In this document: one piece after another, positions 47,858-57,683 of the stretch
Layout: each line of letters starts with the position of its first letter
Position numbering within the stretch: position 1 is the stretch's first letter
Assembly: GCA_963205455.1 (NCBI GenBank)
Contig: CAUJJL010000128.1
Coordinates: forward strand, 14,685 to 78,684
Direction of reading: 5' to 3'
Length of the DNA stretch: 64,000 bases
DNA from: Verrucomicrobiota bacterium
Lineage (GTDB): Bacteria; Verrucomicrobiota; Verrucomicrobiia; Opitutales; Opitutaceae
Notes under the pieces: model-generated
What the model was told of the DNA's origin: nothing
Database searches by the model: none
Seen by the model: the letters and a program-made list of their open reading frames with translations, nothing else
Program-made: the position numbers and the translations under genes

Positions 47858-48318
47858 CAGAGGAACGCTCACAATTTTTGCGCAACTGTGCAACCATAAC
47901 CTAGAGCATGTGGGACAAATTGTAGGGTCAGGTATTACATCGTGACTTGATGATGAAGAGAGCAAGCCCAGTTTCATGTGAGCAACCGGGGAATTTGAGG
48001 CTCGCGCCAACCTATTGGTGTCAAGAATCAAGACTCGACATCGTTTGCTTGGCGCCCTCGTGCACTTAAGGGTGGAGCAGGCTTTCCTGTCTGCCATTCC
48101 CCAGCAGGACACAGACACGAATGTCTGTGCGACCCTTCCAATCCGCGGCTTACACTTCCGTTGGTACTTGCTCAACCCCGCCATCTCCGCGAGTTCGGTC
48201 AGGCTGGGCTCCTCAAGAACACCCTACTTGCACCCGGCAAAGCGCGATGACGTGCTATTGGTCCTCTCAATTGCTTCTTTTCGTCGGTCGACATCCCGGT
48301 TCTATTTTCATCCAACAA

Positions 48319-51300
48319 ATGACCCAAGCGACGAACTCTTGCTCACCCGGTCTCTCCACCATCGAAAACCCACAACAAAAATCAGGGGAAACGGCTGCTT
48401 CCTCCGGCCTCCGCGACAATCACAGCCGCGGCAAAGCCGGTGACTTCCTCCGCGTCGCTATTGCCCCCGGCTCCGAGCTTTCCTTCGTCTCGGCCTACTT
48501 CACCGTTCACGCCTATCAGGCCTTGCGCGACGAACTGGAAAGCGCCCGCAAGCTCCGTTTCCTGTTCGGCGAGCCCAAGTTCATCCGCAACATCGAGAAG
48601 GACGGCAAGCAATCCCGACAGTTCAAACTCGCCGAGAGCGGACTCTCGCTCGCCAACCAGCTCTCGCAAAAAAGTCTCGCGAAAGACTGCGCGGACTGGA
48701 TCACCCGGATGGTCGAAATCAAATCCATTGTCCGCGCCGGATTTCTTCACGGGAAGATGTATCACATCCAGGATGGCAAGGTGGCCCAAGCGCTCCTCGG
48801 CAGCTCGAATTTCACCGTCCCGGGCCTCGGACTGCAAGGCTCCGGTAACAACATCGAGTTGAATCTCATTGTTTCCGATGATCGCGACCGCCGCGATCTG
48901 CTCGATTGGTTCAATGCCCTGTGGAACGACACCTCGCTCACCAGCGATGTCAAGGATCAGGTGCTCCAGGAACTTGCTCGCCTCTATTCGAACCAGACGC
49001 CCGAGTTCATCTACTATCTTACGCTCTTTCATCTCTTCCGCCATTATCTCGACAAAGCGGACGATTCCGACAAAGCCCTCACCAAGACCGCGCTCCCTGA
49101 TACGGGCATCTGGAACGCGCTATTCTCCTTTCAGAAGGACGGAGCGAAGGCCGCCATCAACAAGATCCGCGCCACCAACGGCTGCATCCTCGCCGACAGC
49201 GTCGGCCTCGGCAAAACCTACACCGCGCTGGCCGTCATCAAATTCTTTGAGCTGCGCAATGAGCGTGTGCTCGTGCTCTGCCCGAAGAAGCTCCGCCGCA
49301 ATTGGACGGTCTATAAATCCAACAGCACGCTCAATCCTTTCGACAAGGATCGTTTCGGCTATCACGTCCTTTCCCACACCGACCTCGGTCGCGAGTCCGG
49401 CGAGGTGGATGGCCACGATCTGGCCAATTTCAACTGGGGTGCCTACGACCTCGTCGTCATCGACGAATCGCACAACTTCCGCAACAACAAGCAGGCCGTC
49501 CAGCGGCCGGGCGAACCAGAGAAACACAGCCGTTACCAGCGGCTCATGGAGGAGATCATCAAAAAAGGCCAGCGCACCAAAGTCCTCCTCCTCTCCGCCA
49601 CGCCGGTGAATAACCAGCTCGCCGACCTGCGCAACCAGATCTCCTTCATCGCCGGCGGCGATGTCACCCGTGACGCGGAGGCGGACGCCGCGTTTTCCCG
49701 CAACCTGGAGATCCCATCCGTCAAGGAGACCACTCGCATCGCCCAGGGCCACTTCACCACCTGGTCGAAGAAAAAACCGGAAGAACGCACCACCCGCGAC
49801 CTCCTCCAGAGTATCGGCGGCGATTTTTTCAAGCTGCTCGACGGCCTTAGCATCGCGCGCTCCCGCAGGCAGATCGCCACGTACTATAAGGACGAGATGA
49901 AACGCCTCGGCGGCTTTCCCAAACGCCCCGCGCCGGTGGCGATCCACCCGCCCATCGACCTCGCGGACAAGTTCCTGTCATTCGAAAAACTCGACGAGGA
50001 AATCGGCAAGCTCCGCCTCGCGCTCTACCACCCGACGAGTTTCCTGCGCGACGATCTGCCTGCGCAAGTCCGCGCCACTTATGAAGACAAGATCCTCGGA
50101 GGTTTCACCCAGGAGGGACGCGAACGCATCCTCATCGCCATGATGAAGGTGAACTTCCTCAAGCGCCTGGAAAGTTCCGTGGATTCGTTCCGCCTCACGC
50201 TCCACCGCACGATCGAGAAGATCAACACCCTCGAACAGCGCATCGCCGACTTCCAACTCCACGCGGAAAACCATCCGGAGATTGATTGGGACAACCTTAC
50301 TCCCGACGAAACCGACGACCCCGACGAGGAAACCCGGGACTTCACCATCGGCGGACGCCGCCGCATCCACCTCGCCCACCTCAAGCTCGAAGAATGGCTC
50401 CAGGCCGTGCGCCACGACCGCACCCAGCTCCAGTATCTCCACGAGAAAACCGAGAAGGTGAAACCCGAGCGCGACGCCAAGCTCGCCGAGCTGTGCGCCC
50501 GCATCGAATCAAAGGTCGCCAACCCCAGCATCAACGCCGACGCCAAGCCCATCCGCAAAGTCCTCATCTTCACCGCGTTCGCCGACACTGCGAAATACCT
50601 CCACGACCAGCTTGCCCCCTGGGCCAAGGACCACCTCGGCATTCACAGCGCGCTCATCGTCGGCGACGGGGGCAACCAGACCAGTCTCGGCAGTTCCGAT
50701 TTCGACGACATCCTCACCAACTTCTCACCCGTTTCCAAACGCCGCGCCGAGCAGCCGCGCTTCCCGCATGACGAGGAGATCGACCTCCTCATCGCCACCG
50801 ACTGCATTTCGGAGGGCCAGAACCTCCAGGACTGCGACCTGCTCATCAACTACGACATCCACTGGAACCCGGTCCGCATCATCCAGCGCTTCGGTCGCAT
50901 CGACCGCATCGGCTCCCGCAATGCCACCGTCCAGCTCGTCAACTTCTGGCCCGTCGCCGATCTCGACCGCTACCTCAACGTCAAGCACCGCGTCGAGGCC
51001 CGCATGGCCCTGGCCGACCTCGCCGCCACCCAGACCGACAACCTGCTCGATCCCCAGCAGCTCGACGACCTCATCAGACAGGACCTCCGCTTCCGCAACC
51101 ACCAGCTCAAGCGCCTGAAGGACGAAGTGCTCGACCTTGAGGACTTTTCCGACTCGCCCAGCCTCACCGACTTCTCGCTCGACGAGTTCCGCATCGATCT
51201 CCTCCAGTTCCTCGAAAGCCGCCGCGAGGAACTGGAATCCGCGCCGCTCGGTCTCTACGCGGTCGTTCCGCCAAAGGAGGATCATTGCGTCCGATCCCGC

Positions 51301-51768
51301 CCCGGCGCCCTTTTCTGCTTCCGCAGAGTGGACCAGACGCTCTCGTCAGGTTCCAGGGAAGAGCAGGCAGGATCGCCTGCACCACGCGACTCACAAAACC
51401 TCAACCCGCTCGCCCCGCATTTCCTGATCTACGTCCTGGACGACGGCACCGTCCGTTTCTCCTTCGTCCAGCCTAAGGAAACCCTGCTGCTCCTGCGTGG
51501 CCTTGCCGCCGGGCACCCCACCGCCTTCGAGAAGCTCTGCGATCTCTTCGACGCCCGCACCAAGGACGGCACCGACATGTCCCGCTACGACACCCTCGCG
51601 CGTAGCGCCCTGCGCTCCATCGAGGCCACCTTCCAGAAACGCGCCGCCGCCAGCCTGCTCTCCAGCCGCGGCGGCCTGCTGCCCACCACCGCCGAAACCC
51701 CCACCGCGAATGCGGATGACTGGGAACTCGTCACTTGGCTCGTCGTCTTATCCAGCAATACGGATTGA
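48319..51768 (+). CDS. PLD(HKD)-nuclease domain fused to SNF2/SF2 helicase (restriction-subunit-like)
   Basis: ORF 48121-51768 with a likely ATG at 48319. HKD motif FLHGKMYHIQDG..LLGSSNFT (HGK at 48748-48756). Helicase motifs ILADSVGLGKTYTA (I), DLVVIDESHNFRN (II), LLLSATPVNN (III), LLIATDCISEGQNLQDCDLLINYDIHWNPVRIIQRFGRIDRIGS (V/VI). Confidence 0.9.
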   Translation: MTQATNSCSPGLSTIENPQQKSGETAASSGLRDNHSRGKAGDFLRVAIAPGSELSFVSAYFTVHAYQALRDELESARKLRFLFGEPKFIRNIEKDGKQSRQFKLAESGLSLANQLSQKSLAKDCADWITRMVEIKSIVRAGFLHGKMYHIQDGKVAQALLGSSNFTVPGLGLQGSGNNIELNLIVSDDRDRRDLLDWFNALWNDTSLTSDVKDQVLQELARLYSNQTPEFIYYLTLFHLFRHYLDKADDSDKALTKTALPDTGIWNALFSFQKDGAKAAINKIRATNGCILADSVGLGKTYTALAVIKFFELRNERVLVLCPKKLRRNWTVYKSNSTLNPFDKDRFGYHVLSHTDLGRESGEVDGHDLANFNWGAYDLVVIDESHNFRNNKQAVQRPGEPEKHSRYQRLMEEIIKKGQRTKVLLLSATPVNNQLADLRNQISFIAGGDVTRDAEADAAFSRNLEIPSVKETTRIAQGHFTTWSKKKPEERTTRDLLQSIGGDFFKLLDGLSIARSRRQIATYYKDEMKRLGGFPKRPAPVAIHPPIDLADKFLSFEKLDEEIGKLRLALYHPTSFLRDDLPAQVRATYEDKILGGFTQEGRERILIAMMKVNFLKRLESSVDSFRLTLHRTIEKINTLEQRIADFQLHAENHPEIDWDNLTPDETDDPDEETRDFTIGGRRRIHLAHLKLEEWLQAVRHDRTQLQYLHEKTEKVKPERDAKLAELCARIESKVANPSINADAKPIRKVLIFTAFADTAKYLHDQLAPWAKDHLGIHSALIVGDGGNQTSLGSSDFDDILTNFSPVSKRRAEQPRFPHDEEIDLLIATDCISEGQNLQDCDLLINYDIHWNPVRIIQRFGRIDRIGSRNATVQLVNFWPVADLDRYLNVKHRVEARMALADLAATQTDNLLDPQQLDDLIRQDLRFRNHQLKRLKDEVLDLEDFSDSPSLTDFSLDEFRIDLLQFLESRREELESAPLGLYAVVPPKEDHCVRSRPGALFCFRRVDQTLSSGSREEQAGSPAPRDSQNLNPLAPHFLIYVLDDGTVRFSFVQPKETLLLLRGLAAGHPTAFEKLCDLFDARTKDGTDMSRYDTLARSALRSIEATFQKRAAASLLSSRGGLLPTTAETPTANADDWELVTWLVVLSSNTD

Positions 51769-51798
51769 CGGCAATATGGATTTACGTATGGTTTCCCC

Positions 51799-52077
51799 AT
51801 GAAAACAACCATCGATATTCCCGAGCCGCTTTATAAAAGGGCAAAGATCCGTGCCGTGGAGCGGGGCCAGACGCTCAAACAGCTTGTCCTGATTTCCCTA
51901 GAGCGCGAGCTGGAGGCACCTGAAACTGTCACAGAGGCTCCGACCTCCTACTGGGCCAATCGCAAGCTGCGTCCCGGATACAAAGCCGCGCTCCAGGCCG
52001 GAGCCTTTTCCGGGGGAACGGATTCCACAACCATCATTTCAGAGGATCGCGCTTCGCGGGATGAAGCTCTACTTTGA
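51799..52077 (+). CDS. vapB: Type II antitoxin, VapB-like
   Basis: 92 aa beginning MKTTIDIPEPLYKRAKIRAVERGQTLKQLVLISLEREL. Overlaps the PIN gene by 17 nt. Confidence 0.7.
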   Translation: MKTTIDIPEPLYKRAKIRAVERGQTLKQLVLISLERELEAPETVTEAPTSYWANRKLRPGYKAALQAGAFSGGTDSTTIISEDRASRDEALL

Positions 52078-52513
52078 TTCCAGCTACTTATTTCGCGTTT
52101 ATTCGTGCGAGCCGGGGCATGAAGCCGTGAAAGAGCTGCTTGTTCGGTGCACGGGACTCTTTTCAGCCTGGCACGCCCGCGCAGAATTCTCAGCCATTGT
52201 TTTGCGAAAGCGGCGGGAAGGTAGGGACTCCCCGGAAGATCTCTTTGAGTTGCATGAGCAGTTCCTGGACGAATGTCGCAGCGGGCAGGTGCAGCTGCTG
52301 CCTTTGACGGAGAACGTGTTTCAAGCCATCGAATCCGCGCTGCGCAGCGCTCCCGGCACGACATTTCTCCGGGCTGCGGATGCGATGCACCTCGCCTGTG
52401 CCGCCCAGCACGGCTTCACCGAAGTCTATTCCAATGACCGCCATTTCCTCGCCGCCGCCCCGCTCTTCGGGCTGAAGGGAATCAACATCCTTGGAAAAGA
52501 CGATCCTCAATGA
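52061..52513 (+). CDS. vapC: PIN-domain toxin, VapC-like
   Basis: 150 aa. N-terminal acidic residue in MKLYFDSSYL and C-terminal ..AADAMHLACA..VYSNDRHF, typical of PIN ribonucleases. Confidence 0.8.
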   Translation: MKLYFDSSYLFRVYSCEPGHEAVKELLVRCTGLFSAWHARAEFSAIVLRKRREGRDSPEDLFELHEQFLDECRSGQVQLLPLTENVFQAIESALRSAPGTTFLRAADAMHLACAAQHGFTEVYSNDRHFLAAAPLFGLKGINILGKDDPQ

Positions 52514-52587
52514 GGCCTCGAAATGCCCTTGCCGACACCAATGCCTTGTTTGGCTCCATCCGGGAGGAGGAAGAAGGACGAAATATG

Positions 52588-52605
52588 AAGGATGAAGGAT
52601 GAAGG
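52588..52605. repeat. Left arm of an 18-bp perfect inverted repeat bracketing the four-helix-bundle gene
   Basis: aaggatgaaggatgaagg. Its reverse complement is identical to 52953-52970. It is embedded in a purine-rich GAAGG tract (52565-52610). Confidence 0.9.
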
Positions 52606-52618
52606 AAATGCCGGCCTG

Positions 52619-52951
52619 ATGGAGCGGACGACGGAGTTTGCGCTTCGGATCGTGCGGATGTTTGTCGCGCTGCCGAAGACGGACGAGGCCCGCGTGCTTG
52701 GCAAACAGGTCCTGCGCTCCGGCACCTCCGTCGGCGCCAACTACCGGGAAGCCCGGCGCGCCCGCTCCAAGGGCGAGTTCGTCTCCAAGATCGGCGATTG
52801 CCTCACGGAACTCGACGAATCGAGCTACTGGCTCGAACTCCTCGTGCGCAGCGAAATCGTCCCGGAATCCAAACTCGCCTCCCTCCGGGACGAAAACCAC
52901 CAACTCCTCGCCATCCCCCCAACCATTTCAAAAAAGGCGAAAGGCCAATAA
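52619..52951 (+). CDS. Four-helix-bundle protein (23S rRNA intervening-sequence protein family)
   Basis: ORF 52592-52951 with a likely ATG at 52619. FALRIVRMFVALPKTDEARVLGKQVLRSGTSVGANYREARRARSKGEFVSKIGDCLTELDESSYWLELL matches the family consensus. Confidence 0.85.
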   Translation: MERTTEFALRIVRMFVALPKTDEARVLGKQVLRSGTSVGANYREARRARSKGEFVSKIGDCLTELDESSYWLELLVRSEIVPESKLASLRDENHQLLAIPPTISKKAKGQ

Positions 52952-52952
52952 C

Positions 52953-52970
52953 CCTTCATCCTTCATCCTT
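52953..52970. repeat. Right arm of the 18-bp perfect inverted repeat
   Basis: ccttcatccttcatcctt starts 2 nt after the stop of the four-helix-bundle gene. It continues as a CCTTC-rich tract to about 52990. Confidence 0.9.
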
Positions 52971-52994
52971 TTGCCTTCAACCTTTTCCCCACCC

Positions 52995-55900
52995 ATGTCC
53001 GACCTCCGCAAAGCCATCCAATCCCGCCTCCAGGCCTTCACCACCCAGCCCCTGCGGCAGGCCTCGCTGGCCCTGCTCGACACCCTCGGCTACCGCTCGG
53101 AGCGCTCCCTGCCCATCGATACGTTGACGGCGCTTCAAGAGCAGCTCGATCCCGGCCATCTCCTCCGCGAGGAAAACGCCCACCTTTCCCTCTGGAAATC
53201 CGTTCACCTCCTTTTCCAGCTCACCAAATCCGAACTTGCCCCTTCCGCCGGCAACGATCTGGGTTTGAGCCTTGAATCCCCTTTCGAGCTTCGCCGCGAT
53301 GGCAAGGTCATCGAGTCCTACCTCTTCTTCGCGGTCGATCTCCATCCGCGCTCCGACGGCCAGCCCCACAACCGCGATATCTACGGCACCATCACCCGCG
53401 CCCTCAACCGCCTTGTCCCCCAGCCGGTGCTTGTGCTCTTTCGCGAGGATTCGCGCCTCTCCCTCGCCGTCATCAACCGCCGTCGCAACCTACGCGACGG
53501 CACCCGCGACGTGCTCACCCGCGTCTCCCTCATCCGCGACATCGACTCCCGCTCGCCCCACCGCGCCCACCTCGACCTGCTCCAGCGCTTTTCCCTGCCG
53601 TCCCTCTCCGCCGAGTCCGCCATCCGCACCTTTGCCGATCTCGATACCGCCTGGCAGAAAATCTTCTCCGTTCAGGAACTCAAGGACAGCTTCTACAAGT
53701 CCCTCGCCGCCTGGTTCCGCTGGGCCATCACGGAGATCCAGCTCGCACAGCTCCCCGACCAAACGCCGGACACCGCTAAAAACCGCGACCGCGCCACCCA
53801 GGAGTTCACCGTCCGCCTCATCTGCCGCACGCTCTTCACCTGGTTCCTCAAGGAAATGCGGCTCATCCCCGCCGAACTCCTCGAACTCTACGACACCGCC
53901 GAAACCCGCCGCGTCCTCACCAAAAACGGCGACTCCCGCGACTTCCTCGACGGCAACCACTACTACCGCGGCATCCTGCAAAACATCTTCTTCCAGTCCC
54001 TCAACCGCCCGATGGACCAGCGTCGGAAATCCGGCGCGGAAGCCGCCAACGACCGCGAGGTCATCGCGCCCGATCTCAAAAAGCTTGCCTACGTCGCCAA
54101 GCAGAACCTGCCCGAAACCTTCGACTACTCGCTCTTCGATCGCATTCCCTACCTCAATGGCGGCCTTTTCGACGCCCTGCCCGAGGACAACCTGAAATTC
54201 ACCCACGAGGAGGGCAACGCCTTCCGCGTGCCCAACAAGCTCTTCTACGCCCGCCGCGAGGACGGCTACACGCTCGCAGGCGAGGGGCGCCGCGCCGCCG
54301 CCCAGCCGATGGAAGGCCTCAACCGCATCTTCGACCGCTACCGCTTCACCGTCACCGAGAACACCCCGTTGGAAGAGGATGTCGCCCTCGATCCCGAACT
54401 CCTCGGCCTCGCCTTCGAAAACCTGCTCGCCGAGATTGATCCCGACGACGAGGCCGCCGCCCAGTCCGCCCGCAAGGCCTCCGGCTCCTACTACACCCCG
54501 CGCCGCATCGTGGACTACATGGTCAACGAGGCGCTCCACCTCCACCTCCGCACCGAGTTCGAGAAAGGCGGAGCCTCCTCCGCCGATCTCCAGCTCCTCA
54601 GCCAGCTCTGCTACGAACTCGATCCCCACGCCGATTTCTCGCCCATCGCCGCCCGTGTCGTGGATGTGCTGGATGCCGTGCGCGTGCTCGATCCCGCCTG
54701 CGGCTCCGGCGCCTTCCCCATGGGCATGCTCCACCGCATGGTCGGGCTGCTCCACCGCGTCGATCCCGACAACGAATACTGGAAACAGCGCCTGCTCGAC
54801 CGCCTGCCCGCCGCCATGCGCGACGACGCCCGCCGGGGCATGGAAGGCAAAAGCTACAACTACCTCCGCAAGCTCGGCCTCATCCAGAAAAACCTCTACG
54901 GCCTCGACATCCAGCCGCTCGCCGCCCTCATCGCCAAGCTGCGCTTCTTCCTCACCCTCGTCGTCGAGCAGGATGTCCACCTCAACGATCCCGCCCACAA
55001 CTACGGCCTGGCCTCGCTGCCCAATCTCGAAACCAACCTCCTCTGCGCCAATACCCTGGCCGATGCCGGCCACGGCCTGCTCAGCGGCCCCGTGCTCGCC
55101 GACCTCCGCCGCGCCCGCGAGGAATACTACCAGCCCGGCGCCACCCGCGACCGCCGCGACGCACTCGCCACCGCCATCGGGGAAAAACTCGCCACCCTCT
55201 TCCCCGGCTTCGCCGAAAAGACCAAGGGTGTGAAGCCCTCCGGGGCCACCCAGCTGGACCGCGAGAACATGCGCCGCCAGCAGGATGCCATCTGGCTCGC
55301 TGAGTGGTTCAAGCACGCCACCCTCGCCGCCCCCTTCTTCAATGTGGAAACCTTCTTCCCGGAGCTGGTTGATTCTTCATCCTTCCACCTTCATCCTTCA
55401 CCCTTCCACATCGTCATCGGCAATCCGCCCTACGGCGGCACCAAGATCGACGACGAGGTGAAGACCTCCCTCGGCCTCGGCTCCAAAGACCCCTACGGCG
55501 CCTTCATCGCCCGCTTCCTCGGCGATCCCTCGCGCCCCGCCCCGCTCGCCGAGGGCGGCGTGCTCGCCTACATCGTCAGCGACACCTTCATGACCATCAA
55601 GACGCACCGCCCGCTGCGCGGGCAGATGCTGCGGCACCGCGTCCACAAGATGATCCGCGTCGCCGGCGACACCTTCAAGGCCACCGTCAACTGCGCCGTC
55701 ATCCTCTGCCAGCGCGGCGCGGCCCCGGAGGCCCACACTTGCCAGATGGCCGACCTCACCAATGTCTCCATCTGGGACCAGCACGAGCGCTTCCTCCACC
55801 TGCTCTACCAAACCGAGGGCTTCGCCCGCCGCGCCAACGTCTCCAACCAGACTTACGCGATCTACCACTACAAACAAAACCTGATCCAAACCAACTCGAA

Positions 55901-57683
55901 CCTGCCCTTCTTCGTCGCCTCGCCGAAGCTGTTCGCACTGATGAATGATACCACCGCTCCGGTGCGGCATGAGACCATCGGGGGAAAACGCGTGCCCGTC
56001 CGCACGGTCACGCTCAATGGCAATGCGGTGCGCTTGGTGAAACTCGGGGACATCGCCGAGGTGAAAGTCGGCCTGCAAACCGGCGACAATGACGCCTACC
56101 TCTTTCAGAATCCCGATGCCCGAGGCTCCTATCGCTCCATCGAGGATTATCGTGAGTTTCTTCTCGCCGATGCTGACCTTGAACGAATCCGCTCGGATGA
56201 GAACCTCCGCATGGAGGTGATCCAGCACGGCATCTCAAAAGACGACCGGCAATCCCCACGTTACTTCGGCGGCAGATATATCGCGCATTATGATAAGGGT
56301 GGGGAGTCGGAAAGTGAAGACGGATGGATGCCGAATTACTTCGTTCCAACCAACTACTATATTGATTGGAGCGAATGGGCGGTGAACCGAATGAAGTCGC
56401 TCACAACGAGAACGAGAAACCGTGAACAAGGTAGAACAGGTGGTGATGATTCACTAGCCTCACGCTTTCAAAATGCCGATTCGTATTTTGTCGGAGGAAT
56501 AACGTTCTCGTCCCGTGGTGTATATGCGCCGACCTTTCGTCAAAATGCGGGTGCTTGCTATGACAAGGAAAGCAGCGGGGTTTTCGTAGGGGGAAATGTT
56601 GATAATGTGCTCGCGGTGGTCGCGTCCCGGTTTGCGAAACACCTCTTGAAAGGCTTTCTACAACAAACGGTCTCGATGGATGTGGATGCGCTAAAGGAAC
56701 TAGTCTTGCCTGACAGTATGCCTATGGCTGCCAGTCTTGTTGCTTCAATCATCGGAGTGCAGCGGACCAATCCCCGTTACGACTACGCCAGCAACGAGCA
56801 GCTGGAGATCGACCGACTCGTCTATGCCGCCTACGGCTTGAACGACGGCGACATCAAGGAGGTGGAGAACTGGTATGCCCGCCGCTATCCCAAACTGGCC
56901 GAGGCCCAGCGCCGCAACCTCGCCGCCAGGCTGGGCCGGACCGAGGAGCAGTTGCTCGACCGCCCGGTGCTCCACTTCTACTGCGACGAATCCTGCCACC
57001 TGCCCGCCGACGGCGAGCCGAACATGCTGCTCGGCCTGCTGGCCTGTCCGGCGGAGCGGGTCGCCGCCAGCCATGCCGCGCTGCGCGCCCTCGCCGCCGC
57101 CAGCGGCCTGGAACCCCACTTCGAGGCCAAGTGGACCAAGCTCTCGCCCGCCCGCCTGCCACACTACCTCGCCCTGCTCGACTGGTTCTTCGCCCCGGAG
57201 CAGGAGGCGCTGGCCTTCCGCGCCCTCGTCCTGCCGGACAAGGCCCGCCTCTACGCCGCGCTGCCCGCCACCGCCCGCGACCACCTCTACTACCGCCTCT
57301 ACTACCAGCTCCTGCGCGGCGCGGTGGAGCCCGAGAACCGCCACCGCATTTTCCTCGACACCAAGGACACCCGCGGCCGCGAAAAGGTCGCCAAACTGCG
57401 CGACCTCCTCCAGCGCGACGCCGGCGACAGCCTGCAAACCGCCCGGGCCATCCAGGACCTGCAGCTCGTCCGCTCCCACGAGATCGCCCTGCTCCAGCTC
57501 ACCGACCTCTTCCTCGGCGCCATCGCCTACGCCCGCCGCGGCTCCACATCCAGCCCCGCCAAACTCGCCTTCGTCCGCGCCCTCGAAGCAAGAATCGGCG
57601 CCTCCCTCACCGCCGACACCCCGCCCGGCAGCGCCAAATTCCTCATCGCCACCGAATACGACCAGGACGCCCTCTTGCTCTGA
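52995..57683 (+). CDS. PglX/MmeI/Eco57I-like N6-adenine DNA methyltransferase with TaqI_C-like specificity region, fused to a C-terminal DUF3800 domain
   Basis: ORF 52638-57683. The in-frame ATG at 52995 (MSDLRKAIQ..) follows the four-helix-bundle gene. Motifs IPYLNGGLFD, SGSYYTPRRIVDYMV, VLDPACGSGAFP (about 54684-54716), NLYGLDIQPLAALIAKLRFFL, VIGNPPYGG (NPPY at 55422-55433), GLQTGDNDAYLF, IDRLVYAAYGLNDGDIKEVE. From about 56964: VLHFYCDESCH ... ALLQLTDLFLGAIAY (DUF3800 hallmarks). Confidence 0.85.
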   Translation: MSDLRKAIQSRLQAFTTQPLRQASLALLDTLGYRSERSLPIDTLTALQEQLDPGHLLREENAHLSLWKSVHLLFQLTKSELAPSAGNDLGLSLESPFELRRDGKVIESYLFFAVDLHPRSDGQPHNRDIYGTITRALNRLVPQPVLVLFREDSRLSLAVINRRRNLRDGTRDVLTRVSLIRDIDSRSPHRAHLDLLQRFSLPSLSAESAIRTFADLDTAWQKIFSVQELKDSFYKSLAAWFRWAITEIQLAQLPDQTPDTAKNRDRATQEFTVRLICRTLFTWFLKEMRLIPAELLELYDTAETRRVLTKNGDSRDFLDGNHYYRGILQNIFFQSLNRPMDQRRKSGAEAANDREVIAPDLKKLAYVAKQNLPETFDYSLFDRIPYLNGGLFDALPEDNLKFTHEEGNAFRVPNKLFYARREDGYTLAGEGRRAAAQPMEGLNRIFDRYRFTVTENTPLEEDVALDPELLGLAFENLLAEIDPDDEAAAQSARKASGSYYTPRRIVDYMVNEALHLHLRTEFEKGGASSADLQLLSQLCYELDPHADFSPIAARVVDVLDAVRVLDPACGSGAFPMGMLHRMVGLLHRVDPDNEYWKQRLLDRLPAAMRDDARRGMEGKSYNYLRKLGLIQKNLYGLDIQPLAALIAKLRFFLTLVVEQDVHLNDPAHNYGLASLPNLETNLLCANTLADAGHGLLSGPVLADLRRAREEYYQPGATRDRRDALATAIGEKLATLFPGFAEKTKGVKPSGATQLDRENMRRQQDAIWLAEWFKHATLAAPFFNVETFFPELVDSSSFHLHPSPFHIVIGNPPYGGTKIDDEVKTSLGLGSKDPYGAFIARFLGDPSRPAPLAEGGVLAYIVSDTFMTIKTHRPLRGQMLRHRVHKMIRVAGDTFKATVNCAVILCQRGAAPEAHTCQMADLTNVSIWDQHERFLHLLYQTEGFARRANVSNQTYAIYHYKQNLIQTNSNLPFFVASPKLFALMNDTTAPVRHETIGGKRVPVRTVTLNGNAVRLVKLGDIAEVKVGLQTGDNDAYLFQNPDARGSYRSIEDYREFLLADADLERIRSDENLRMEVIQHGISKDDRQSPRYFGGRYIAHYDKGGESESEDGWMPNYFVPTNYYIDWSEWAVNRMKSLTTRTRNREQGRTGGDDSLASRFQNADSYFVGGITFSSRGVYAPTFRQNAGACYDKESSGVFVGGNVDNVLAVVASRFAKHLLKGFLQQTVSMDVDALKELVLPDSMPMAASLVASIIGVQRTNPRYDYASNEQLEIDRLVYAAYGLNDGDIKEVENWYARRYPKLAEAQRRNLAARLGRTEEQLLDRPVLHFYCDESCHLPADGEPNMLLGLLACPAERVAASHAALRALAAASGLEPHFEAKWTKLSPARLPHYLALLDWFFAPEQEALAFRALVLPDKARLYAALPATARDHLYYRLYYQLLRGAVEPENRHRIFLDTKDTRGREKVAKLRDLLQRDAGDSLQTARAIQDLQLVRSHEIALLQLTDLFLGAIAYARRGSTSSPAKLAFVRALEARIGASLTADTPPGSAKFLIATEYDQDALLL
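55374..55409 (+). repeat. In-frame CCTTC-rich tract (2 x CTTCATCCTTC) inside the methyltransferase, directly upstream of NPPY
   Basis: tcttcatccttccaccttcatccttcacccttccac encodes SSSFHLHPSPFH. It shares the 11-mer core with the right arm at 52954-52964 and is complementary to GAAGGATGAAG in the left arm. Confidence 0.8.

Follow-up and report, generated by a model that had tools for sequence, protein, structure and literature searches.

The segment at about positions 52562-52990 of a 64,000-nt stretch of DNA from a Verrucomicrobiota bacterium (GCA_963205455.1, contig CAUJJL010000128.1, forward strand 14,685-78,684; the whole stretch is hereafter called the window) holds a small gene of the four-helix-bundle (4HB) family PF05635/TIGR02436, bracketed by two complementary arrays of a seven-base repeat, and forms a distinct insert of about 420 bases within a defense operon of restriction type. 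The segment is a real member of a class of cassettes that resemble the intervening sequences (IVS) of ribosomal RNA (rRNA), here in a messenger RNA (mRNA) context, and on balance it probably represents one copy of a widespread insertion cassette that would act at the RNA level, through a stem in the operon transcript that is cut by RNase III. The 4HB protein family was first met inside 23S rRNA IVS, the flanking stems of which are cut by RNase III. Since the 1990s such rRNA IVS bearing an open reading frame (ORF) have been on record, with neither an origin nor a function assigned to them, and heptamer repeats are over-represented in bacteria without a known cause. Identifiers beginning with G denote genomes (G000 is the window's own, 97.9% complete, and the others are relatives), those with L compared loci and those with P compared proteins.

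The 4HB gene and its complementary arms

The sequence-only reading that preceded this analysis had proposed that an 18-bp perfect inverted repeat closes the 4HB gene, and direct reading of the letters agrees with it. The 18-mer AAGGATGAAGGATGAAGG at 52588-52605 has its exact complement at 52953-52970; the two 18-mers bracketing the gene (aaggatgaaggatgaagg on the 5' side and ccttcatccttcatcctt on the 3' side) are both made of tandem GAAGGAT / ATCCTTC heptamers. A repeat search extended the pair to 37-nt arms (52569-52605 / 52953-52989) that are 76% complementary, and the duplex fold of the corresponding RNA (52562-52606 x 52953-52990) reached -53.8 kcal/mol with 34 pairs, one 6-nt bulge and two small internal loops. 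The wider RNA folding that the same reading had called for gave the expected stem: in the minimum free energy fold of 52555-53000 the arms close the ORF (-189.3 kcal/mol, z = -6.9, 0/100 shuffles as good). The idea that the whole ORF would sit in the loop of this stem holds in that the fold encloses it, but not for its beginning, as the 5' arm contains the likely start codon at 52592 together with GAAGG Shine-Dalgarno-like motifs, and these are part of the stem. The stop codon (TAA, 52949-52951) is followed by a single base, 52952, before the 3' arm, and the ATG at 52619, 13 nt past the 5' arm, from which the earlier reading had measured, is probably not the start. The 3' arm ends 5 nt ahead of the methyltransferase ATG, and a family search of 51500-53500 found no rRNA or other Rfam family.

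The abundance and complementarity of these repeats were compared with background. Allowing at most one mismatch, the window has 8 copies of the 12-mer GAAGGATGAAGG, where 0.41 would be expected, and 0/100 shuffles reach 8. An inverted-repeat (IR) score was taken, for each 4HB gene, as the highest gapless complementarity between its two 200-nt flanks, and the null paired the upstream flank of one 4HB locus with the downstream flank of another; the window cassette scores 18, against a null mean of 8.15 and a 99th percentile of 13.9.

The product of the gene matches PF05635 with 62.6 bits (cut-off 33.8) and TIGR02436 with 82.8 bits (cut-off 24), aligns over residues 9-114 with PDB 2RLD (E = 1.8e-22) and carries the R-x3-S-x3-N-x2-E motif as LRSGTSVGANYRE, the published family motif being GxxRxxxSxxxNxxE (PMC3936711). 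In a database search with the subfamily, about 7,900 proteins matched at E <= 1e-10, of which the best 120 are 70-97% identical. Because nearly all of these 120 closest homologues begin with MKDE or MMKDE, corresponding to the in-frame, arm-encoded ATG at 52592, this ATG inside the 5' arm is most likely the real start, and not 52619. The identical protein is carried by 19 metagenome contigs, with the same context on the 10 shown.

Discreteness and recurrence of the cassette

Judging from the limits of homology, the arm-to-arm segment is a discrete module, as the earlier reading had held, because the homology to the sister cassette in L307 covers exactly 52574-52992, coinciding with the arms, and the flanks continue in L305 with no cassette between them. 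L305, the closest host operon, is 86% identical at the nucleotide level up to 51746 and 90% identical from 52992, with other genes in between. The comparison of orthologous loci for an empty site, which had been suggested as a check, succeeded in part: in L304 and L048 the flanking genes are adjacent and L305 lacks the cassette, but no base-exact empty site was found. Among same-genus relatives none was seen for this copy, the gaps holding other accessory genes or nothing.

Another suggested check concerned arms on other 4HB genes. The window's own genome has only one true member of the family, and the answer came from relatives, where it favored the earlier reading. A Pfam search of 40 related genomes yielded about 90 family members, 85 of which were retrieved with their flanks; 69/85 have an IR score above the 95th percentile of the null and 55/85 reach the 99th, with an observed median of 17. 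The arms are tandem repeats with a period of nearly always 7, sometimes 6 or 8, and their units vary by cassette (AGGAGTC, GGAATCC, GTAATGA, CGTTCAG, AATTTTG and others). Cassettes with similar proteins have similar arms (Mantel p <= 0.0005), the sharing of arm 6-mers being 0.71 at protein identities of at least 70%, 0.29 at 50-70% and 0.01 below 40%, and cassettes with GAGGGAT in the 5' arm tend to have ATCCCTC in the 3' arm (Fisher p = 0.008). Genes from other phyla that are 45-62% identical to the window's retain GAAGGAT or GAGGGAT arms, and remoter 4HB genes of those same genomes have other arm units. Because arm sequence follows the protein and unit variants are mirrored between the arms, gene and arms are, by this comparison, inherited as one unit. 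A 4HB gene that landed in a pre-existing host hairpin was ruled out by the arm units following protein similarity and by the arm-encoded N-terminus throughout the subfamily. Altogether, the features that mark the class of heptamer-armed cassettes are found in the window: a PF05635 gene, inverted arrays with a period of about 7, a unit that follows the protein lineage, and a position between co-oriented genes.

Gene contexts were read for nine copies of this 4HB subfamily. Members that are 80-85% identical sit in other operons, all with GAAGGAT-type arms, and 9/9 copies are co-oriented with both neighbors. The same gene and arms occur in at least seven different gene contexts, including hsdM-4HB-kinase-4HB-hsdS; Snf2 helicase - AAA_14 - 4HB - Eco57I/MmeI methyltransferase; DUF6079 ... 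4HB - N6_N4 methyltransferase - TIR; PLD-Snf2 - DUF3800 - 4HB - homologue of the N-domain of the window methyltransferase; and HATPase_c_4 gene - 4HB - homologue of the window methyltransferase. In several copies the upstream gene terminates within the 5' array. Tandem GAAGGAT supplies TGA and ATG whatever the reading frame, and in four sister cassettes it is within this array that the upstream gene stops; a role of the 5' array as a frame-independent stop/restart adaptor was nevertheless rejected as not general, since among 50 armed cassettes stops in all three frames were found in 10 5' arms versus 3 (p = 0.09) and 18 arms had none. In one type I operon (L242:3001-4583), two subfamily cassettes (dS 0.4) flank a Kinase-PolyVal-like gene between hsdM and hsdS, with a zeta-toxin-like gene downstream.

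In L307, whose methyltransferase is of the same family as the window's, the cassette lies within the 3' end of the upstream gene, whose product now finishes within the array as ..KGRRMIYEG*. A 46-nt direct duplication (42/46; L307:2301-2346 and 2756-2801) flanks the cassette before the 5' arm and after the 3' arm, and its downstream copy runs into the displaced original ending ..KGRAWLSLNQP*; in L044-L046, which have no cassette, the tail is uninterrupted (..KGRAWL..). None of the other eight cassettes, including the window's, has such a duplication; it is therefore not a regular target duplication, and it may be the primary product of insertion or may reflect a cassette imported with a piece of a homologous donor gene.

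Between subfamily cassettes dN/dS is 0.02-0.2 and dS about 1-2.5, and the subfamily protein is under purifying selection. Because synonymous sites between copies are saturated, the cassette copies and their insertions appear old and no recent movement is seen; the arms keep the GAAGGAT-type unit although these sites are saturated. The earlier suggestion that the arms are the terminal repeats of a mobile cassette thus received a divided answer, with at least seven contexts and the interrupted tail of L307 in its favor, and the lack of a neighboring transposase, the lack of a duplication in the window and the saturated synonymous sites against it. Mobility seems to be supported only on evolutionary time scales.

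Host operon, neighboring genes and arrays without the gene

The features of the locus are listed in the table. The helicase, vapB, vapC, the 4HB gene and the methyltransferase are all co-oriented with short gaps; the sole promoter-like site among these genes precedes vapB, and no terminator-like site was found between the operon genes. Because it is co-oriented and has no promoter or terminator of its own, the cassette is probably transcribed within the operon message.

Table. Coordinates of the cassette, its arms and the surrounding genes in the window
Feature	Position	Strand	Description
5' arm	52562..52606	+	Purine-rich GAAGGAT-type heptamer array; perfect core 52588-52605
3' arm	52953..52989	+	Pyrimidine-rich ATCCTTC-unit array, complementary to the 5' arm; perfect core 52953-52970
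Cassette	52574..52992	+	Extent set by 76% nucleotide homology to the sister cassette in L307 (2343-2757)
4HB gene	52592..52951	+	119 aa; alternative start 52619 gives 110 aa; PF05635/TIGR02436; closest solved structure 2RLD
PLD(HKD)-Snf2 helicase, host operon gene 1	48121..51768	+	PADLOC C3a139 'HKD+Snf2', 377 bits
vapBC module	51761..52513	+	vapB 51799-52077, vapC/PIN 52061-52513; promoter-like site 51765-51792
Methyltransferase, host operon gene 2	52995..57683	+	Eco57I/type IIG-like N6-adenine; C-terminal DUF3800 domain
In-frame array of 3'-arm units in the methyltransferase	55371..55410	+	TTCATCC TTCCACC TTCATCC TTCACCC TTCCAC

The helicase-methyltransferase pair is kept in relatives and the gap between the two genes is variable, containing a HATPase_c_4-type, DUF1016-like, Fic or KilA-N-like gene, or nothing in L048 and L304, where the genes abut. 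The vapBC pair (51761-52480) is 85% identical at the nucleotide level, and its VapC 88% identical, to a pair in an unrelated context without a 4HB gene; by this comparison it is an independent, itself mobile module in the helicase-methyltransferase gap. The sister pair adjoins a YkuD gene on other metagenome contigs.

Four related loci without a 4HB gene (L047, L049, L050 and L305) carry solo pyrimidine-rich heptamer arrays within the final 30-80 nt ahead of the methyltransferase start, made of GATCACT x3 and AATTTCAG-type units in L050, CTACTCG-type units in L049 and TTCATCC/CTCATCC in L305. The array in L305 was considered as the footprint of a lost cassette and rejected, as it bears only a weak resemblance to cassette 3' ends (p ~0.03, shuffling). 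At L306:2860-3300, after a vapC-like PIN gene, an ORF starting GGAAGGAGGAATGATGAAGGATGAAAAAG (MMKDEK..) resembles the subfamily 5' arm and N-terminus; it encodes 139 aa with no Pfam match and is followed by no 3' array, and it could be other cargo or a half-arm chimera. More divergent genes of the family were also seen. L002 (G000:C196:25548-25754), L029 and L030 are weaker PF05635 matches in proteins of about 300 aa, in which the bundle is followed by DRSDPTDLIDLSDQ- and DRSDRTDQTDQSDPTD-like runs (translated short repeats) and a C-terminal zinc-ribbon, CPKCG..WGC..C; genes of this type have no flanking inverted arrays.

The arrays also occur without the gene. Stretches with the exact 18-mer number at least 120 and come from many phyla, and no more than one or two of them adjoin a 4HB gene. 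In 120 sampled stretches there were 79 solo arrays, 39 hairpins with a loop of less than 150 nt and one with a loop of 150-700 nt, all of the hairpins with the purine array first, and 1 pair in the reverse order. The loops of the gene-less hairpins, 15-180 nt long, are unrelated to one another, and approximately 15/38 genomes with such hairpins also have a GAAGGAT-armed 4HB gene elsewhere. In two relatives, G025 and G029, arrays are numerous and none of the 4HB genes detected is GAAGGAT-armed. G025 has 32 matches of the 18-mer and perfect (GAAGGAT)n arrays at contig ends (C2 379377-379429, C10 7-52, C30 6-51 and C38 22708-22760), and long arrays apparently break its assembly.

Some arrays lie in frame inside genes. 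The one in the window's methyltransferase, 2.4 kb from the cassette, repeats the 3' arm in direct and the 5' arm in inverted orientation, and it encodes the loop DSSSFHLHPSPFH directly before motif IV (IVIGNPPY). Such a loop is present in 3 of about 100 close methyltransferase homologues, namely the window's, P0134 (L305) and P0174 (L306, with 4.5 perfect TTCATCC units), and the remaining ones read G[DE]G..RHPA at this site. A tie between the array-type loop and the upstream cassette was rejected, as L307 has a cassette with a normal loop and L305 and L306 have array loops with partial arms only. Additionally, the window's own genome has a gene-less GAAGG-type hairpin (G000:C97:3270-3345, -30.7 kcal/mol) in frame inside hsdS (PF01420), in the region that joins the first conserved helix to the second target-recognition domain, translated as ..RRMKDENGHSSFLLQPSTL...

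Predicted RNA processing, competing readings and known systems

In the explanation that we prefer, a PF05635 gene, inherited together with a pair of arrays that are complementary to each other and built from the heptamer of its lineage (GAAGGAT / ATCCTTC), would have come to lie beside the independently acquired vapBC, in a helicase/methyltransferase junction whose genes are directly adjacent in sister loci, and would be read as part of the operon transcript. The arms would then pair in the RNA as a duplex of about 34 bp, 18 bp of it perfect, closing a loop of about 350 nt and sequestering the start codon. RNase III would cut this duplex as it does in the rRNA IVS of the family, and the cut would free the cassette RNA and part the helicase-vapBC message from the methyltransferase message, which may make the insert tolerable in an operon and set the expression of the small protein. 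The genome contains an RNase III gene, a near-perfect long duplex in a transcript is a textbook RNase III substrate, and processing by this enzyme is predicted as the most likely consequence of the structure. The sequence-only reading had gone further in describing an IVS-like cassette transplanted into an mRNA. The design is the same as that of ORF-bearing 23S IVS, but a transplantation from an IVS found no support in that wording: because most 4HB genes of the 40 relatives are armed and the nine subfamily copies that were read lie between protein-coding genes, it is the rRNA copies that look like a special case.

Several observations weigh against this explanation. The window's copy has K->T (52806) at a position conserved in 115/118 homologues and FT->PP (52916-52919) where 96/97 are conserved, being the only one among about 118 and about 97 homologues, respectively, with these residues. 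Against L241, which encodes a 97% identical variant with arms identical to the window's and 8 changes in the ORF, dN/dS is 0.55; in L241 the altered residue is instead a W, conserved in 100/102, that has become L. These substitutions suggest relaxed constraint in the window/L241 lineage, and the 4HB protein of the window may be decaying, or losing function, while the arms stay perfect. No duplication flanks 8/9 subfamily cassettes, including the window's, where the best direct repeat scores 12, the noise level. No transposase was found among the window neighbors (helicase, vapBC, methyltransferase), with no genome-wide transposase search made. Arm mismatches in 55 armed cassettes show no wobble bias (G.U 40 vs A.C 45, p = 0.66); long-term selection on a sense-strand RNA helix would be expected to leave an excess of G.U, and its lack points as much to upkeep at the DNA level. 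It gives no support for selection on the sense RNA and does not exclude cleavage. Lastly, ribosomes that initiate at 52592 or run on from vapC could keep the stem open.

The missing wobble signature is also the starting point for a serious rival, in which the arms would act as DNA, as hairpin or cruciform substrates, formed in supercoiled or single-stranded DNA, for insertion, copying or repair of the element, with complementarity renewed by copying arm from arm, akin to integron attC sites, repetitive extragenic palindromic (REP) sequences and hairpin-ended elements, and the RNA stem as a by-product. The repeat unit that stays unchanged while synonymous sites are saturated would fit this, as would the gene-less (GAAGGAT)n / (ATCCTTC)n pairs in at least 39/120 sampled loci with their purine-first order (40 vs 1), the in-frame arrays inside the methyltransferase and hsdS genes, the arrays at G025 contig ends, and the published inverted heptamer pairs of Xanthomonas, for which no gene is named (PMC4692102). 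However, no recombinase, transposase or reverse transcriptase is seen near the cassette and RVT_1 has no match genome-wide, the target duplication is irregular (1/9 cassettes, 46 nt, imperfect), experimental precedent exists solely for cleavage at the RNA level, and a long perfect duplex in the transcript would be an RNase III substrate whatever maintains it. We judge a DNA-level role of the arms to be possible, if rather improbable as the leading explanation, and the RNA and DNA readings are not mutually exclusive. A bolder and doubtful proposal is that the 4HB protein and its own heptamer arrays form a cognate pair, a self-propagating element without a classical transposase, in which each protein lineage would recognize the folded DNA or RNA of its own 7-base repeat, colonize transcribed junctions (rRNA helices, operons of restriction-modification (R-M) systems) and give off hairpins and arrays devoid of the gene, of which some would lie in frame within host genes (the methyltransferase loop and the hsdS linker, for example).

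It is quite unlikely, in our assessment, that the 4HB gene, instead of being a selfish insert, serves R-M-type systems as a functional accessory or regulator, with a hairpin that tunes translation of the methyltransferase. The contexts do invite the idea: 8/9 in the subfamily are R-M or defense operons with the gene directly upstream of a methyltransferase or HsdS, and the systems include type I (twice in one operon), type IIG-like and N6_N4. Strong purifying selection, PF05635 genes published inside cas operons (PMC3936711) and an extended 3' arm that covers the expected ribosome-binding region of the methyltransferase would also agree with it. Yet the closest homologues of the host operon (L304, L305, L306 and L044-L050) do without a 4HB gene, the window's copy carries the radical substitutions described above, and no PADLOC family matches the 4HB protein. 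Finally, the arms are simple repeats, and G+A-rich tracts are common near start codons, which could point to a chance inverted repeat of a low-complexity purine tract beside an ordinary small gene; with 8 motif matches against 0.41 expected, an IR score of 18 against a null 99th percentile of 13.9, and the arrangement present in 65-80% of the relatives' 4HB genes and in all sampled subfamily members, this is hardly credible.

Among known systems, the ORF-bearing 23S rRNA IVS comes closest. In Coxiella burnetii this element contains an S23p gene, a 28-bp terminal stem and tandem GACAGAT heptamers, and RNase III cuts it mid-stem (PMC4990558); an ORF-bearing 23S IVS is also attributed to Leptospira (Ralph & McClelland 1993, as cited in PMC4990558). 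The cassette shares with these IVS the PF05635 family, a length of about 430 nt, complementary termini around the ORF with a stem of 28-34 bp, and heptamers just upstream of the start codon (GACAGAT in Coxiella, GAAGGAT here), and, as in Coxiella, there are signs of ORF decay while the RNA element is kept (PMC4990558). It differs in its host, which is an mRNA operon with a PIN-domain gene and a methyltransferase as flanks, in place of the rRNA helix that defines an IVS; and excision by RNase III, demonstrated there, is predicted here and would cut a polycistronic message instead of an rRNA.

The arms themselves recall the intergenic heptamer arrays and inverted pairs described as GGGAATC in Xanthomonas and GGGGAYT in Nostoc (PMC4692102). 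Those arrays also have a period of 7, often form convergent pairs capable of a stem-loop, lie mainly between co-oriented genes and are transcribed, and cargo-less (GAAGGAT)n hairpins are likewise common. In contrast, no gene family is named there and G-quadruplexes are offered as the explanation, whereas GAAGGAT has no G-tracts, and here the arrays bracket a conserved gene and follow its phylogeny. The literature yielded no paper that joins PF05635 genes with heptamer pairs or describes the cassette in mRNA operons, and the design of a gene plus arms was found there only for rRNA.

Other mobile or accessory systems were compared as well. Avd, an accessory protein of diversity-generating retroelements (DGR), is a homologous four-helix bundle that acts on nucleic acid with a reverse transcriptase (PMC10053308); a DGR reading was rejected, as the whole genome has no RVT_1 match and there is no template/variable pair, the repeats being only inverted heptamer arrays. 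By the usual criteria the cassette is not a transposon or a miniature inverted-repeat transposable element (MITE), having no neighboring transposase and no regular short target duplication. Integron cassettes and MITEs resemble it in carrying a small promoterless gene or none, in their imperfect inverted repeats and many contexts, and in gene-less derivatives. However, the arms are on both sides instead of at one 3' attC, the cassette is embedded among unrelated operon genes, and, compared with both kinds of element, the arms are tandem heptamers specific to a protein lineage and short regular target duplications are lacking. No integrase was noted near the cassette, with no search aimed at integrases made.

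The locus links rRNA intervening sequences and heptamer repeats within an ordinary operon, and it provides evidence at base resolution, namely the limits of the cassette, its absence from homologous sites and the interrupted target in a sister locus. For annotation, the arms account for spurious 'MKDEG...' and '...HPSSFILHPSS' peptides and for unusual loops in restriction-modification genes. Should the stem prove to be an RNase III site, these cassettes would be natural, portable operon-splitting modules. If the protein recognizes its own repeats, they would be a new kind of minimal mobile element, and the cognate-pair proposal, if true, would account for the rRNA intervening sequences and also for a large part of the surplus of heptamer repeats seen in bacteria.

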